From Escherichia coli (lineage in GTDB: Bacteria; Pseudomonadota; Gammaproteobacteria; Enterobacterales; Enterobacteriaceae), in NCBI RefSeq assembly GCF_003334305.1, contig NZ_QOWS01000008.1: a DNA stretch of 64,000 bases, one strand, 5' to 3'. The notes below the pieces were generated by a model that was given only the letters and a program-made list of their open reading frames with translations, was not told the DNA's origin and made no database searches. This document shows, in pieces, positions 8,145-51,128 of this stretch. The translations under genes were made by a program, and so were the position numbers. Each line of letters starts with the position of its first letter. The first letter of the stretch is position 1.

Positions 8145-9023
8145 ATGAGTAAAAAGCAGAGTTCCACCCCACATGATGCGCTGTTCAAACTCTTTTTACG
8201 CCAACCGGACACGGCTCGCGATTTTCTTGCGTTCCATTTACCGGCCCCCATTCACGCGCTCTGTGATATGAAAACCCTCAAGCTGGAGTCGAGCAGCTTT
8301 ATTGATGACGATCTGCGTGAAAGCTATTCCGATGTGCTGTGGTCGGTGAAAACGGAACAAGGACCAGGATACATCTATTGTCTGATTGAACATCAAAGCA
8401 CCTCAAACAAACTGATCGCATTTCGCATGATGCGTTAAGCTATTGCCGCAATGCAAAATCACCTTGATGCTGGATACAAAACGTTGCCGATGGTGGTGCT
8501 ATTGTTGTTTTACCACGGTATTGAAAGCCCCTATCCCTATTCGCTGTGTTGGCTGGATTGTTTCGCCGATCCCAAACTGGCAAGGCAGCTTTATGCCTCC
8601 GCATTTCCGCTGATTGATGTCACCGTCATGCCTGATGATGAAATCATGCAGCACCGACGTATGGCGCTGCTGGAGTTAATTCAAAAACATATTCGTCAAC
8701 GCGACCTGATGGGGCTGGTAGAGCAAATGGCCTGCTTATTAAGTAGTGGATACGCTAATGACAGACAAATCAAAGGGCTGTTTAATTACATACTGCAAAC
8801 CGGCGACGCGGTACGTTTTAACGATTTTATCGACGGCGTTGCCGAACGTTCACCGAAACACAAGGAGAGTTTAATGACAATTGCGGAAAGATTGCGGCAG
8901 GAGGGGGAACAATCCAAAGCCCTGCATATAGCCAAAATAATGCTTGAATCCGGAGTCCCTCTTACAGACATCATGCGCTTTACCGGGGTGTCAGAAGAAG
9001 AGTTGGCTGCGGCGAGCCAGTAA
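8145..9023 (+). pseudogene. rpnA: rpnA/yhgA (recombination-promoting nuclease, PDDEXK/transposase_31 family) split by an in-frame TAA at 8436-8438
   Basis: Track ORFs 8145..8438 (97 aa, [17 protein letters not shown]...FRMMR*) and 8451..9023 (190 aa) are in the same frame, separated only by TAA and four sense codons (AIAA). Read through, they total 292 codons, which is the length I recall for intact YhgA. Confidence 0.75.
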
Positions 9024-11177: not shown

Positions 11178-11236
<59 letters not shown>

Positions 11237-11361
11237 TTGAACATGTGCCAGACGTTGGCACAGCATTGCTTTGGCAAATCCCTCCCTTCGTTTCCCCGCG
11301 ATAATATGACCAACCTCTCATAATTTAAATTTACCCCGCTCTGGTGATTCTCAAACGCCAG

Positions 11362-11383
11362 ATGTTACCCGTATCATTCACAT
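11362..11383 (+). promoter_or_regulatory. Candidate GntR operator in the gntT promoter
   Basis: ATGTTACCCGTATCATTCACAT matches the ATGTTA-N4-TAACAT-type GntR operator. Confidence 0.5.
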
Positions 11384-11502
11384 GGGTACCAAACATACTC
11401 CTGACATCTGACTACAATAATTAGTTTTAGTGGGTATCAGTCGTGGTGCCGCAATATCTCTGTTCCCGATTGGGATAATTAGAGTTTGTCGTCAGAAAAC
11501 TG

Positions 11503-11520
11503 ACGTTACCCATAACAAAT
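11503..11520 (+). promoter_or_regulatory. Second candidate GntR operator upstream of gntT
   Basis: ACGTTACCCATAACAAAT, same half-site architecture, about 20 bp upstream of the gntT ATG. Confidence 0.4.
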
Positions 11521-11537
11521 GAAAGGCCAGGTAAATC

Positions 11538-12854
11538 ATGCCATTAGTCATTGTTGCTATCGGTGTAATCTTGTTGTTGCTCCTGATGATCCGCTTCAAA
11601 ATGAACGGCTTCATCGCTCTCGTCCTCGTGGCGCTTGCTGTTGGATTAATGCAAGGAATGCCGCTGGATAAAGTTATTGGCTCCATCAAAGCCGGTGTCG
11701 GCGGGACGCTCGGTAGCCTTGCCCTGATCATGGGTTTTGGCGCAATGCTGGGCAAAATGCTGGCAGACTGCGGTGGCGCACAACGTATCGCCACCACGCT
11801 GATTGCCAAATTTGGTAAAAAACACATCCAGTGGGCGGTGGTACTGACCGGTTTTACCGTTGGTTTTGCCCTGTTCTATGAAGTGGGCTTTGTGCTGATG
11901 CTGCCGCTGGTGTTTACCATCGCGGCTTCTGCGAATATTCCACTGTTGTATGTTGGTGTACCAATGGCAGCTGCACTGTCTGTGACCCACGGCTTCCTGC
12001 CACCGCATCCGGGTCCGACTGCGATTGCCACCATTTTCAATGCCGATATGGGTAAAACCCTGCTGTACGGTACTATTCTGGCAATCCCGACCGTGATTCT
12101 CGCCGGTCCGGTTTACGCTCGCGTGTTGAAAGGTATCGATAAGCCAATTCCGGAAGGTCTCTACAGCGCGAAAACCTTCAGCGAAGAAGAGATGCCGAGC
12201 TTTGGCGTCAGCGTCTGGACTTCTCTGGTGCCGGTTGTGCTGATGGCGATGCGTGCGATTGCCGAAATGATCCTGCCGAAAGGTCACGCTTTCCTGCCGG
12301 TAGCGGAGTTCCTCGGTGACCCGGTAATGGCAACGCTGATTGCCGTGCTGATTGCGATGTTCACCTTTGGTCTGAACCGTGGTCGTTCAATGGATCAGAT
12401 TAACGACACGCTGGTTTCTTCCATCAAAATCATTGCGATGATGCTGTTGATCATCGGTGGTGGCGGTGCGTTCAAGCAGGTGCTGGTAGACAGCGGCGTG
12501 GACAAATACATTGCTTCCATGATGCACGAAACCAACATTTCTCCGCTGCTGATGGCCTGGTCGATTGCTGCCGTACTGCGTATCGCGCTGGGTTCCGCAA
12601 CCGTTGCGGCAATCACTGCGGGTGGTATCGCGGCACCGCTGATTGCAACGACGGGTGTTAGCCCAGAGCTGATGGTTATTGCGGTGGGTTCCGGTAGTGT
12701 GATTTTCTCTCATGTGAACGATCCGGGCTTCTGGCTGTTCAAAGAGTACTTTAACCTGACTATCGGCGAGACCATCAAATCCTGGTCGATGCTGGAAACC
12801 ATTATCTCGGTGTGCGGTCTGGTAGGCTGTCTGCTGCTGAATATGGTGATTTGA
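11538..12854 (+). CDS. gntT: High-affinity gluconate:H+ symporter GntT (438 aa)
   Basis: 438-aa polytopic GntP-family permease MPLVIVAIGVILLLLLMIRFKMNGFIALVL... Confidence 0.93.
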   Translation: MPLVIVAIGVILLLLLMIRFKMNGFIALVLVALAVGLMQGMPLDKVIGSIKAGVGGTLGSLALIMGFGAMLGKMLADCGGAQRIATTLIAKFGKKHIQWAVVLTGFTVGFALFYEVGFVLMLPLVFTIAASANIPLLYVGVPMAAALSVTHGFLPPHPGPTAIATIFNADMGKTLLYGTILAIPTVILAGPVYARVLKGIDKPIPEGLYSAKTFSEEEMPSFGVSVWTSLVPVVLMAMRAIAEMILPKGHAFLPVAEFLGDPVMATLIAVLIAMFTFGLNRGRSMDQINDTLVSSIKIIAMMLLIIGGGGAFKQVLVDSGVDKYIASMMHETNISPLLMAWSIAAVLRIALGSATVAAITAGGIAAPLIATTGVSPELMVIAVGSGSVIFSHVNDPGFWLFKEYFNLTIGETIKSWSMLETIISVCGLVGCLLLNMVI

Positions 12855-26410: not shown

Positions 26411-26815
<405 letters not shown>

Positions 26816-26875
26816 TTATACATATCACTCTAAAATGTTTTTTCAATGTTACCTAAAGCGCGATTCTTTGCTAAT

Positions 26876-26893
26876 ATGTTCGATAACGAACAT
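26876..26893. promoter_or_regulatory. GlpR operator palindrome in the glpD / glpEGR divergent control region
   Basis: Perfect inverted repeat ATGTTCGATAACGAACAT about 35 bp upstream of the glpD ATG, with a related half-site just downstream (TTTAACGAAAGTGA). Confidence 0.6.
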
Positions 26894-43807: not shown

Positions 43808-45148
43808 TTAACTCAACAGCTGGAACGCAATCATCCCAACGATGGCACCGACAGTGCCGAGGATGGTTTCCATCATGGTCCAGGTTTTCAGCGTTTCGGC
43901 TTCGGTCGCGCCGGTAAATTTACCGAACAACCAGAAACCGGCGTCGTTAACGTGGCTGACAACAATCGAACCACCAGCGATACAAATCGACAGCGCCGCC
44001 ATTTGCGCACCGGAGTAGTTCAGTTGTTCAATAACCGGCATCACCAGTCCTACCGCCGTTAAACAGGCTACGGTGGCAGAACCCTGAATGATGCGCACTG
44101 CAGCGGCCAGCACGAAGCAGGTGATGGCTATCGGCAGGCCCATGCCAGTTAACGCTTCGCCCAGTGCCGGACCTACGCCAGAGTCAACCAGCACCTGTTT
44201 GAACACGCCACCTGCACCAATCACCAGCAGAATGATCCCCGCCGGTTGCAGCGCGTGACCGCAAATCTCCATCACTTTGTCTTTTGGCATGCCCTGACGC
44301 ATTGCCAGGCCATAAATCGCTACCAGACAAGCAACCAGAATCGCGGTAAACGGATGACCAATAAACTCGAACCATTCGTAAGCGGTAGAGCCTTCTGGCA
44401 CAAAACGCGCGGCAATGGTTTTCAGCCCCACCAGCACCAGCGGCAACAGGATCAGCGACAGGCTGAATCCGAAAGATGGCATTTTGCCTTCGCCGAGATG
44501 CGGTTCGCTGATGTCGTCAGGAATATGCAACTCCACGTAGCGGCTGATGAAATTACCCCACAGCGGCCCGGCAATAATCATTCCCGGAATTGCCGCACAC
44601 AGGCCAATCAGGATCATCCAGCCAAAATCGGCGTTCATCTGCGATGCCAGCAGCATTGGCGCTGGCCCTGGCACCAGGAACGCCGCCGCTGCCGCCACGC
44701 CTGCGAATAATGGGATTACCAGCTTCACCAGGTTCGTACCGGTGTGGCGCGCCATTGAGAAAGCAACGCTAATCAGCAGAACAATCGCCACTTCAAAGAA
44801 CAGCGGTAGCGCACAGACCAGCCCCGCAAGGCCGATGGCATAATGCGCGCGGCTGTGACCGAAGGATTTAAGCATTTTGACGGCAATCTGATCGACTGCG
44901 CCGGTTTCATGTAAGATCTTGCCAAACATAGCTCCCAGGGCGACAACCACCGCCAGGAAGCCGAGGGTGCCTCCCATCCCTTTTTCCATCGTCGCTGCGA
45001 TTTTATCGAGCGGCATACCGGAAAAAAGGCCAGCCCCCATGGACACCACCATCAAAGCCAGGAAAGCGTGCATACGCGCCTTCATGACTAAAAACAGCAG
45101 CAGTAAAACAGACCCTACTGCTGTTAAAACAAGCGTTAATGTAGTCAC
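43808..45148 (-). CDS. gntU: Low-affinity gluconate transporter GntU (446 aa)
   Basis: 446-aa GntP-family permease MTTLTLVLTAVGSVLLLLFLVMKARMHAFL.... Starts 3 nt after the gntK stop. Confidence 0.93.
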   Translation of the reverse strand: MTTLTLVLTAVGSVLLLLFLVMKARMHAFLALMVVSMGAGLFSGMPLDKIAATMEKGMGGTLGFLAVVVALGAMFGKILHETGAVDQIAVKMLKSFGHSRAHYAIGLAGLVCALPLFFEVAIVLLISVAFSMARHTGTNLVKLVIPLFAGVAAAAAFLVPGPAPMLLASQMNADFGWMILIGLCAAIPGMIIAGPLWGNFISRYVELHIPDDISEPHLGEGKMPSFGFSLSLILLPLVLVGLKTIAARFVPEGSTAYEWFEFIGHPFTAILVACLVAIYGLAMRQGMPKDKVMEICGHALQPAGIILLVIGAGGVFKQVLVDSGVGPALGEALTGMGLPIAITCFVLAAAVRIIQGSATVACLTAVGLVMPVIEQLNYSGAQMAALSICIAGGSIVVSHVNDAGFWLFGKFTGATEAETLKTWTMMETILGTVGAIVGMIAFQLLS

Positions 45149-45151
45149 TAC

Positions 45152-45679
45152 TTATTTGCCTTTTTTAATAACCTCAATGGTGCTTGCCACAACACCTTCC
45201 AGCGGTTGATCGATATCCACCACCAGTACATCAGTTTCGTCCGCACCCGGCTCCTGCAGCGTTTCAAACTGCGTCACCAACATTTGGGTTTTAAAGAAAT
45301 GGCCTTTGCGCGCTTTCAGGCGGCTTTCAATCACGTCAAAATCGCCTTTCAGGTAGATGAAAGAGAGATTCGGATTACCTTCACGCAGCAAGTCGCGATA
45401 GTGTTTTTTCAATGCAGAACAGACGATCAGTGACACTTTATTAGTGCGCTGCATAGCAAACGCGGCGTCGTTCAGCGCCTGCAACCACGGTTTGCGATCG
45501 TCGTCATTCAGCGGTTCGCCAGACGCCATTTTTTCGATATTGCGCCGTGGATGGAGGAAATCGCCATCAAGAAACGCGGCATGAAGTTGATGCGCCACTT
45601 CACTGGCGACCGCAGATTTGCCGCTGCCCGATACGCCCATCAAGACGTAAATGTGGTGATCATGGTTAGTCGTGCTCAA
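45152..45679 (-). CDS. gntK: Gluconokinase GntK (175 aa) with apparent TTG start
   Basis: Product (M)STTNHDHHIYVLMGVSGSGKSAVASEVAH... (P-loop). There is no in-frame ATG upstream of the P-loop; candidate TTG starts are at 45679 and 45700. Confidence 0.85.
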   Translation of the reverse strand: MSTTNHDHHIYVLMGVSGSGKSAVASEVAHQLHAAFLDGDFLHPRRNIEKMASGEPLNDDDRKPWLQALNDAAFAMQRTNKVSLIVCSALKKHYRDLLREGNPNLSFIYLKGDFDVIESRLKARKGHFFKTQMLVTQFETLQEPGADETDVLVVDIDQPLEGVVASTIEVIKKGK

Positions 45680-45709: not shown

Positions 45710-45738
45710 ATGTTACGGGTAACTGTTATCGGTAACAT
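45710..45738 (-). promoter_or_regulatory. Candidate tandem GntR operators in the gntKU promoter
   Basis: ATGTTACGGGTAACTGTTATCGGTAACAT contains two overlapping ATGTTA-N4-TAACAT-like palindromes about 30-60 bp upstream of gntK. Confidence 0.5.
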
Positions 45739-45817
45739 TGTCCAGCCGGACAATATCAGAAGCAATATCCATCCGTGCCTTAAGTGTATAAGTGTGAGCT
45801 ACTTCAAATTTGTGGGC

Positions 45818-46813
45818 TTAAATAGATCCGCCCGGTGACAAGGTGAAACCTAAATCTAACATTTTCGGTGTCACAGATTCGCCACGAATACGCGCCAGCA
45901 GGCGTTCAGCGCCAATACTGCCCATCCGCTCACGCGGCGTCAGCACGCTCGCTAACCGCGGCTCCATCACCTGGCCAATGTCATGACCGTGGAAACCGGC
46001 AATCGCCATATCGTCAGGAACCTTCAATCCCAGACGCTGACATTCAAACGCCGCGCCGACCGCCAGGTCATCGTTGGTACAGAACACGCCATCCATCTGC
46101 GGATATTCCCGCCGCGCCTGGCGAATCAGTTCAATACCGGAAGAGTAAGAAGAAGATTGCTCAACCATCACGCTATACGGCACCAGACCTGCATCCAGCA
46201 TCGCCTGTTCGTATCCCTTCTGTTTGATGATAGTACGTTCGTCGAGACGCGCGCCGAGATAGGCAATGTGGCAATGCCCGCGAGCAATAATGGCGGTGGT
46301 CATCTGGCGTGCCGCTTCAAAGTTATCAAAACCGACGGCGATATCGAGGCACGGCGACTGGCTGTCCATGAGTTCCACCACCGGGATCCCCGCCACTTCA
46401 ATCATCTTTAAGGTGCGCGGCGTGTGGGTACGTTCGGTGAGGATCAGTCCGTCGATATTCCATGAGAGCATGGATTCGAGACGTTCTTGCTCCATTTCCG
46501 GTTTATAACCGTAGTGCGCCAGCATGGTCTGATAACCGTGCGCGTCGGTGACGCTTTCGATTCCGCGTAATACTTCCGCGAAAACCTGGTTGGTGAGAGA
46601 AGGTAACAGGACGCCAATCGCCCGGCTGGTAGCGTTAGAGAGGATATCGGGCGCACGATTGGGAATATAGCCCAGTTCATCAAGAGCGGCGGCAATCTTG
46701 CCGCGTAGAGCGACGGAAACCTGCTCCGGGTTGCGTAAAAAACGGCTGACCGTCATTTTGGTCACGCCTACACGGTCAGCCACATCCTGAAGTACGGGTC
46801 TTTTCTTTTTCAT
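45818..46813 (-). CDS. gntR: LacI-family gluconate repressor GntR (331 aa)
   Basis: 331-aa ORF MKKKRPVLQDVADRVGVTKMTVSRFLRNPEQVS... (HTH plus periplasmic-binding-fold core). Confidence 0.93.
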   Translation of the reverse strand: MKKKRPVLQDVADRVGVTKMTVSRFLRNPEQVSVALRGKIAAALDELGYIPNRAPDILSNATSRAIGVLLPSLTNQVFAEVLRGIESVTDAHGYQTMLAHYGYKPEMEQERLESMLSWNIDGLILTERTHTPRTLKMIEVAGIPVVELMDSQSPCLDIAVGFDNFEAARQMTTAIIARGHCHIAYLGARLDERTIIKQKGYEQAMLDAGLVPYSVMVEQSSSYSSGIELIRQARREYPQMDGVFCTNDDLAVGAAFECQRLGLKVPDDMAIAGFHGHDIGQVMEPRLASVLTPRERMGSIGAERLLARIRGESVTPKMLDLGFTLSPGGSI

Positions 46814-46995
46814 CGTCCTGAAGGTACAAAAGAGATAGATTCTCTTAGTTTAACACGGACGCATCAGAACCTTCCCGGGGAAAACAGTGCTTGTTTACAA
46901 TTATTAGATATACACTAAATCAATTGCATCGCATTGTGCTAACGACGCGGCAAAACCCCGGAAGCGTGCATCAGCACGCGACCGGAGCGAGCGAG

Positions 46996-47019
46996 GAAGC
47001 CTGCAAAAAGGCAGGCTTC
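46996..47019. terminator. Hairpin downstream of yhhW
   Basis: GAAGCCTGCAAAAAGGCAGGCTTC, 17 nt after the yhhW stop. No clean U-run. Confidence 0.3.
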
Positions 47020-47036
47020 AAAGATGCCGTTGAGTT

Positions 47037-49949: not shown

Positions 49950-51128
49950 ATGAGTAATATTGTTTACCTGACAGTAACGGGAGAACAACAAGGAAGCATC
50001 TCCGCAGGTTGTGGGACTTCTGAGTCTACAGGTAATCGTTGGCAGAGCGGGCATGAGGATGAAATATTTACATTCTCACTCTTAAATAATATTAATAATA
50101 CGGGGCTTGGTTCACAGTTCCATGGTATAACATTTTGTAAATTAATTGATAAAAGCACTCCATTATTTATTAATTCCATTAACAATAATGAACAATTATT
50201 TATGGGATTTGACTTCTATCGAATAAATAGATTTGGTAGATGGGAAAAGTATTATTATATACAACTAAAAGGCGCTTTTTTATCGGCTATTCATCATCAG
50301 ATCATTCAAAATCAACTGGATACAGAAACAATAACTGTTAGTTATGAATTTATCCTCTGTCAACATCTTATCGCAAATACCGAGTTCAGCTATTTGGCAC
50401 TCCCTGAAAATTATAACCGTTTGTTTTTACCAAATTCAAAAAACCAAACAAATAATCGTTTCAAAACGTTAAACAGCAAAGCTATTGGCAGGCTACTTGC
50501 TGCTGGTGGCGTATACAATGGGAACATTGAAGGATTCAGAGATACTGCGGAAAAACTGGGTGGAGATGCAATAAAAGGCTATGATCAAATACTAAATGAA
50601 AAAACAGCGGGCATAGCGATAGCAACAGCATCTATTCTTTTAACAAAGCGTTCTAATGTTGATACATATACAGAAATAAATAGTTACTTAGGCAAACTTA
50701 GAGGTCAACAAAAACTTCTTGATGGTATAGACATAATAGAAATAATATACATTAAGAGACCTTCAAAAGACTTAGCTAACTTACGAAAGGAGTTTAATAA
50801 AACTGTAAGAAAAAATTTTCTTATCAAACTTGCAAAAACCTCCGAAGCATCTGGAAGATTCAACGCCGAAGACCTTTTAAGAATGAGAAAGGGCAATGTT
50901 CCTCTAAATTATAATGTTCACCATAAACTATCTCTAGATGATGGTGGTACTAATGATTTCGAAAATTTAGTATTAATCGAAAACGAACCATATCATAAAG
51001 TTTTTACTAACATGCAATCACGAATAGCTAAGGGAATATTAGTAGGTGAAAGCAAAATCACTCCCTGGGCCATTCCATCTGGCTCAATTTATCCTCCCAT
51101 GAAAAATATTATGGACCACACAAAATGA
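49950..51128 (+). CDS. yhhZ: YhhZ-like polymorphic toxin (392 aa): N-terminal Hcp-like domain fused to a C-terminal HNH (beta-beta-alpha-metal) nuclease domain
   Basis: The N-terminus (MSNIVYLTVTGEQQGSISAGCGTS...) resembles Hcp/TssD. The C-terminus carries NYNVHHKLSLDDGGTNDFENLVLIENEPYHKVF (HH...N...H). Local sequence is strongly AT-rich compared with the flanking genes. Confidence 0.8.
   Translation: MSNIVYLTVTGEQQGSISAGCGTSESTGNRWQSGHEDEIFTFSLLNNINNTGLGSQFHGITFCKLIDKSTPLFINSINNNEQLFMGFDFYRINRFGRWEKYYYIQLKGAFLSAIHHQIIQNQLDTETITVSYEFILCQHLIANTEFSYLALPENYNRLFLPNSKNQTNNRFKTLNSKAIGRLLAAGGVYNGNIEGFRDTAEKLGGDAIKGYDQILNEKTAGIAIATASILLTKRSNVDTYTEINSYLGKLRGQQKLLDGIDIIEIIYIKRPSKDLANLRKEFNKTVRKNFLIKLAKTSEASGRFNAEDLLRMRKGNVPLNYNVHHKLSLDDGGTNDFENLVLIENEPYHKVFTNMQSRIAKGILVGESKITPWAIPSGSIYPPMKNIMDHTK

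Follow-up and report, generated by a model that had tools for sequence, protein, structure and literature searches.

The gluconate repressor GntR of Escherichia coli has been classed in a LacI/GalR subfamily that has gluconate as inducer (PMC3877293). With reference to Peekhaus & Conway 1998, the 16-bp sequence ATGTTACCCGTATCAT has been employed as an operator of E. coli GntR, and in a cell-free system it conferred GntR-dependent repression that was relieved by gluconate (bioRxiv 10.1101/2023.01.10.523462). The sequence ATGTTACCGATAACAG and the consensus ATGTTACCCGTAACAT also serve as GntR recognition sites, and deletion or splitting of the site abolished the GntR-dependent control (PMC10450161). 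In a comparative-genomics study of the LacI family, more than half of the gamma-proteobacterial GntR-regulated operons were seen to have conserved pairs of sites that overlap at a distance of about 13 bp (PMC4052901); citing Tsunedomi 2003a, the study describes the sites overlapping in this way at E. coli gntKU as experimentally functional. As per the available structures, dimers on 13-bp overlapping LacI-family sites 'cannot interact', and a special binding mode has been suggested (PMC4052901). The occupation of overlapping pairs such as that of gntK by LacI-family dimers is accordingly described as difficult to fit to the known structures.

Among the LacI/GalR-family systems in which DNA looping is described, lac and gal combine a primary operator at the promoter with an auxiliary one located about 100 bp from it. 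The gntT locus resembles them in having an operator over the core promoter and a second one about 140 bp away, but differs in that the auxiliary site is located downstream, in the leader adjoining the ribosome-binding site. Looping at gntT, and a tetrameric state of GntR (331 aa), would be further, putative likenesses.

The DNA analysed here, a 64-kb stretch referred to as the window, contains four 16-bp near-palindromes, which are read as GntR operators that put gntT and gntKU under one gluconate-responsive switch, with a probability of roughly 0.93. They are the already characterised E. coli GntR operators preceding gntT and gntKU, and are hence known and not new. When compared to the GntI operators of E. 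coli K-12, the positions, the overlap with the -10 hexamer, the 13-bp overlapping gntK pair and the cognate repressor all agree, and there is no substantive difference between the two operator sets.

Gluconate genes of the window and their repressor

The window is a segment of the E. coli chromosome extending from envZ to livK, and both loci of the GntI gluconate system, gntT and gntR-gntK-gntU, fall inside it. A 1-kb query around gntT displayed 100% identity to strain A7 and was found in 5425 of 5426 complete E. coli genomes, and the gene map of A7 is collinear with the window across the whole envZ-livK span. In the annotation of the A7 record, rpnA (window 8145-9023) is a pseudogene with an internal stop.

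The high-affinity gluconate transporter gene gntT (11538-12854, plus strand) was identified by the NF011560 equivalog model, with 931 bits against a cut-off of 744, and by RefSeq; it is located downstream of gntX and nfuA, and a spacer of 360 bp separates it from nfuA. The second locus is on the minus strand, with gntR immediately upstream of gntK and a spacer of 138 bp in between. Gluconokinase is encoded by gntK (45152-45679, TTG start at 45679; NF008583 equivalog, 374 bits against 265; RefSeq) and the low-affinity gluconate transporter by gntU (43808-45148; NF007781 equivalog, 916 bits against 625; RefSeq). The original prediction had located the repressor gene at 45818-46813, and a gntR of 331 aa was confirmed at this position on the minus strand; its product matches the NF011563 equivalog with 774 bits against a cut-off of 433 over the full length (1-331), showing that the genome encodes a GntR equivalog as cognate repressor, and the RefSeq annotation is in agreement.

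Weaker NCBIfam matches of the GntR protein were to IdnR, RbsR, CytR, MalI, CcpA, LacI and PurR. Every significant match is to a model of the LacI/GalR family, and none is to an N-terminal winged-helix DNA-binding domain of the GntR type. As judged from these profile matches, E. coli GntR is a LacI/GalR-family protein despite its name, and not a winged-helix regulator of the 'GntR family'. With the GntR/FadR winged-helix superfamily, whose namesake is Bacillus subtilis GntR, it has only the name and the gluconate effector in common; unlike that superfamily, it fits LacI-family models in full length and its operator is a LacI-type 16-bp palindrome. A weight matrix of the GntR family is therefore the wrong tool for a motif scan of these sites.

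The closest paralog is IdnR (GntH), to whose model the GntR protein scores 399 bits, and this raises the question whether the sites are mainly targets of IdnR, or of some other regulator, which would then account for the likeness between the two loci. Cross-binding of IdnR/GntH is documented in the literature and GntR recognises IdnR sites in turn, but this cross-talk adds to the control by GntR and does not replace it. The place of gntR directly before gntK also argues for GntR itself, as does the purified cell-free system, where repression from the O1 sequence needed no regulator but GntR and was relieved by gluconate (bioRxiv 10.1101/2023.01.10.523462). A principal role of IdnR or of another regulator is accordingly held to be very improbable, and GntR is retained as the regulator.

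Operator sites and their departure from chance

A scan of the 64-kb window with the pattern ATGTTA-N4-TAACAT, allowing two or fewer mismatches, gave six matches, four of which are the sites named by the original prediction. Two of these precede gntT on the plus strand, namely O1, ATGTTACCCGTATCAT (11362-11377, one mismatch), and O2, ACGTTACCCATAACAA (11503-11518, two mismatches). The other two are in the gntR-gntK spacer on the minus strand and, read on the gntK strand, are ATGTTACCGATAACAG (45723-45738, one mismatch), the upstream member of the pair, and CAGTTACCCGTAACAT (45710-45725, two mismatches), the downstream member. The claim that 45710-45738 is a tandem overlapping pair was borne out, as the two members are offset by 13 bp and have 3 bases in common. 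The downstream member ends 31 bp before the TTG start of gntK, so that the pair occupies 31-59 bp upstream of it.

All four sites are 16-bp near-palindromes of the GntI operator set (consensus ATGTTACCCGTAACAT) with one or two mismatches, and they are located in the promoter or leader of genes for gluconate uptake or catabolism, gntT and gntK. They also have in common a core, GTTACC(C/G)(G/A)TAAC, in one orientation relative to the regulated gene, which is missed by the N4 pattern. Two of the four are identical with operators used in experiments: O1 with the sequence of the cell-free study (bioRxiv 10.1101/2023.01.10.523462), and 45723-45738 as the reverse complement of a recognition site of PMC10450161. 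A literature search for the literal strings found O2 and 45710-45725 quoted verbatim in no accessible text.

A loose pattern of this kind could also be matched by chance in AT-rich promoter DNA, and about two matches per window are indeed due to chance, as seen in the two remaining ones at 26813-26828 (glpE-glpD intergenic) and 50998-51013 (inside tssD), a number equal to the expectation of 1.8-2.3. The four sites stand apart from this background, since a pair of matches within 150 bp was obtained in 0.6% of 4000 windows simulated with a first-order Markov model, and two such pairs in none of them. For the nfuA-gntT spacer (360 bp), 0.010 matches are expected, with a probability of 5e-5 for at least two; for the gntR-gntK spacer (138 bp), the corresponding values are 0.004 and 8e-6. 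Moreover, in DNA that has otherwise diverged between genera, O1 has stayed invariant and O2 almost so. Chance can be set aside altogether as the origin of the sites, and the near-palindromes of one form that had been claimed at the gntT and gntKU promoters are real, four in number and far beyond chance expectation.

The glpE-glpD spacer contains not only the chance-level match ATGTTATACATATCAC at 26813-26828 but also, at 26846-26853, the half-site ATGTTACC and, at 26876-26893, the perfect palindrome ATGTTCGATAACGAACAT. The latter is presumably a GlpR-type operator; half-sites of GlpR and GntR alike start with ATGTT.

Upstream of gntR (46814-47036), no operator-like site was found at three or fewer mismatches, which fits a gntR gene without autoregulation. 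Izu 1997 reportedly found gntR not to be autoregulated.

Promoter architecture

The promoter scan of gntT predicted a weak -35 hexamer, TTCTCA (11348-11353, plus strand), where GGTnATTyTC is conserved across genera, and a -10 hexamer, TATCAT (11372-11377, plus strand), at a spacing of 18 bp. The right half of O1 is this predicted -10 hexamer, and the bound repressor would therefore block RNA polymerase. From the -10 hexamer, the transcription start is placed at about 11384, and O2 consequently falls at about +127, within the leader predicted to be transcribed. It lies 141 bp downstream from O1, and 20 bp ahead of the ATG. With 10.5 bp to the helical turn, a distance of 141 bp does not comprise an integer number of turns, and it is neutral with respect to looping.

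A CRP-like site, TATGA-N6-TCTCA (11305-11320, plus strand), was read from the sequence with its centre at 11312.5, about -71.5 from the predicted start. Its TGA and TC.CA parts are conserved across genera, and the Buttiauxella version is TGTGA-N6-TCTCA. In their 1998 study, Peekhaus & Conway are said to have located the gntT CRP site at -71 and to have mutated both gntT operators, each of which reportedly contributed to repression. The CRP-like site at about -71.5 and the two operators agree with this layout. Upstream of the gntK operators, a putative CRP-like site, TTTGA-N6-TCACA (45793-45808, minus strand), was likewise picked out by eye, and a sigma-70 scan of the gntR-gntK spacer picked up no consensus promoter.

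Between nfuA and the gntT promoter there is a REP-like element (11192-11231), which gave a sub-threshold match to the Rfam family naRNA4, with 27.5 bits where the gathering score is 59.5. Next to it, at 11244-11262, comes a hairpin resembling a terminator, TGTGCCA-GACGT-TGGCACA, and its tail is rich in T.

Conservation of the operators

The window is from a non-K-12 strain, and its nfuA-gntT spacer is 98.3% identical to that of E. coli K-12, with all mismatches outside the operators; both gntT operators are identical in K-12 MG1655. About 920 of the 5426 complete E. coli genomes carry an allele of this spacer that is only about 85% identical to the window. In this allele, O1, O2, the CRP-like site and the -35 region are unaltered, and 5 of the 7 bases directly before O1 are changed. 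The spacer (11179-11537) is dimorphic in E. coli, with the same NfuA and GntT protein accessions in both types, and the divergent allele is E. albertii-like in places.

The comparison across genera was carried out with one genome per species, using as query the degenerate first 11 codons of gntT, so that the operators were not presupposed. It gave 29 loci, from Citrobacter, E. albertii, Salmonella, Phytobacter, Buttiauxella, Silvania, Enterobacter and Pseudocitrobacter. Of the 27 loci whose upstream DNA extends far enough, 26 have an identical O1 at about -176 relative to the ATG, O2 was found at about -35 in 25 loci, and the O1-O2 spacing is 140-143 bp in all 23 loci having both operators. 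A Pelosinus locus returned by the same scan is without operators and is probably an unrelated match.

In an enterobacterial alignment of 14 taxa, the invariant columns amount to 100% of O1 (11362-11377) and 88% of O2 (11503-11518), as compared to 0-6% in the flanking non-coding DNA, with 6% between the operators (11384-11502) and 0% upstream of the CRP-like site. The same alignment fixes the extent of the gntT sites. The first had been drawn at 11362-11383, of which 11362-11377 stands, whereas the extension 11378-11383 (TCACAT) has no invariant column (0%) across genera and is to be removed; of the second, drawn at 11503-11520, the part 11503-11518 is kept and 11519-11520 are outside the operator. 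The cross-genus footprint of the gntT operators independently supports these two sites as GntR operators.

For the gntK pair, the comparison was confined to E. coli, where the gntR-gntK spacer is near-invariant and has no power to distinguish operators from flanks. The most divergent E. coli strain found, 96% identical over a 301-bp query, has one substitution in this spacer and none in the operators.

Some genera show variations on the arrangement at gntT. Three Pseudocitrobacter loci have a deletion of 1 nt in the right half of O2, and Pseudocitrobacter also has ATGTTACCGCGCAACAT, which resembles an operator, has a spacing of 5 nt and is located about 119 bp upstream from O1; the two together may represent turnover of the auxiliary operator. 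Two loci of Phytobacter / UBA3516 have kept O2, and have in addition GTGTTACCCGTATC beside the nfuA terminator, about 120 bp upstream of O1.

Leader of gntT

Another explanation starts from the position of O2, which is in the leader predicted to be transcribed and 20 nt from the ATG: O2 would be conserved chiefly for a role in the leader RNA, for instance in translation control or in binding of an sRNA or protein near the Shine-Dalgarno sequence, and O1 would be the only true GntR site at gntT. The invariant block continues past O2 into the ribosome-binding region, the first 3 bases of O2 are also part of a hairpin, CGTCAG-AAAA-CTGACG (11490-11505), and the leader has further signs of conserved structure. 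However, O2 is mostly unpaired in the predicted fold, and it has the same 16-bp palindromic pattern and GTTACCC-TAAC core as the three other sites, two of which are experimental GntR sites; a DNA palindrome is not to be expected of an element that acts as RNA. In the work of Peekhaus & Conway, both operators were reportedly mutated and each contributed to repression, which also counts against a role in RNA only. Such a role is considered quite improbable, and O2 is taken as a probable operator on the strength of the conservation data and of the result reported for Peekhaus & Conway 1998. Part of the conservation of O2, which is transcribed and adjoins the ribosome-binding site, may still stem from constraint on the RNA.

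The leader itself has several features of possible secondary structure. A long-range helix may start from the predicted +1, where GGGUACC (11384-11390) can pair with GGUGCCG (11445-11451). Across 21 enterobacterial sequences, 83% of the cells pair in this helix, as compared to 32-53% when the partner strand is slid, and pair swaps of GC to AU or the reverse are seen in 4 sequences and of CG to UA or the reverse in 2. Of 500 shuffles, 12 attained the covariation score. By explicit pair counting, the covariation is only modest. RNAalifold on the gntT leader did not recover the long-range helix of the single-sequence fold, and Rfam has no family in the leader. Taken together, the alignment is suggestive only of a conserved long-range helix. 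In Pseudocitrobacter, the helix would be formed by different but complementary strands, GCGTCG/CGACGC. Two local hairpins are also seen, UCCC-GAUU-GGGA (11464-11475), with a stem that most genera retain, and CGUCAG-AAAA-CUGACG at 11490-11505.

Across genera, the two operators stay 140-143 bp apart although nearly all of the sequence between them has diverged, and there is the apparent leader helix with some compensatory changes. These observations raise the possibility that gntT control has a layer beyond the textbook operator model, either an obligatory geometry of the repression loop or a structure of the mRNA 5' end that serves stability or translation. We consider such a layer unlikely.

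Model of regulation and its significance

In the proposed model, GntR, as a LacI/GalR-family dimer, would sit on O1 of gntT when gluconate is lacking and, as O1 holds the -10 hexamer, would exclude RNA polymerase. GntR would also occupy O2, 141 bp downstream in the leader, which most likely strengthens the repression, whether in cooperation with O1, through a loop with O1 or as a roadblock. The target of GntR at gntK would be the pair offset by 13 bp, a short distance before the start codon. Binding of gluconate would free GntR from the operators, and transcription could then be activated by cAMP-CRP, bound at the CRP-like sites that precede the two promoters.

The sites, their non-randomness, the conservation of sequence and spacing at gntT, the overlap of O1 with the predicted promoter and the repressor gene are results of the present analysis, while binding and repression by GntR at O1 and at the gntK site are taken from the literature, and the role of O2 and looping are deduced. 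The proposal that both loci have GntR as common repressor is supported by the published model, the identity of operators with those already in use and the cross-genus footprint of the gntT sites. This outcome shows that a reader without tools can recover the regulon correctly from the sequence.

The gluconate operators described here belong to the established regulatory logic of the GntI system and their sequences are already in use as synthetic-biology parts; they carry little weight as a discovery. The cross-genus footprint, with its exact operator boundaries and conserved O1-O2 spacing, could aid the modelling of gntT repression.
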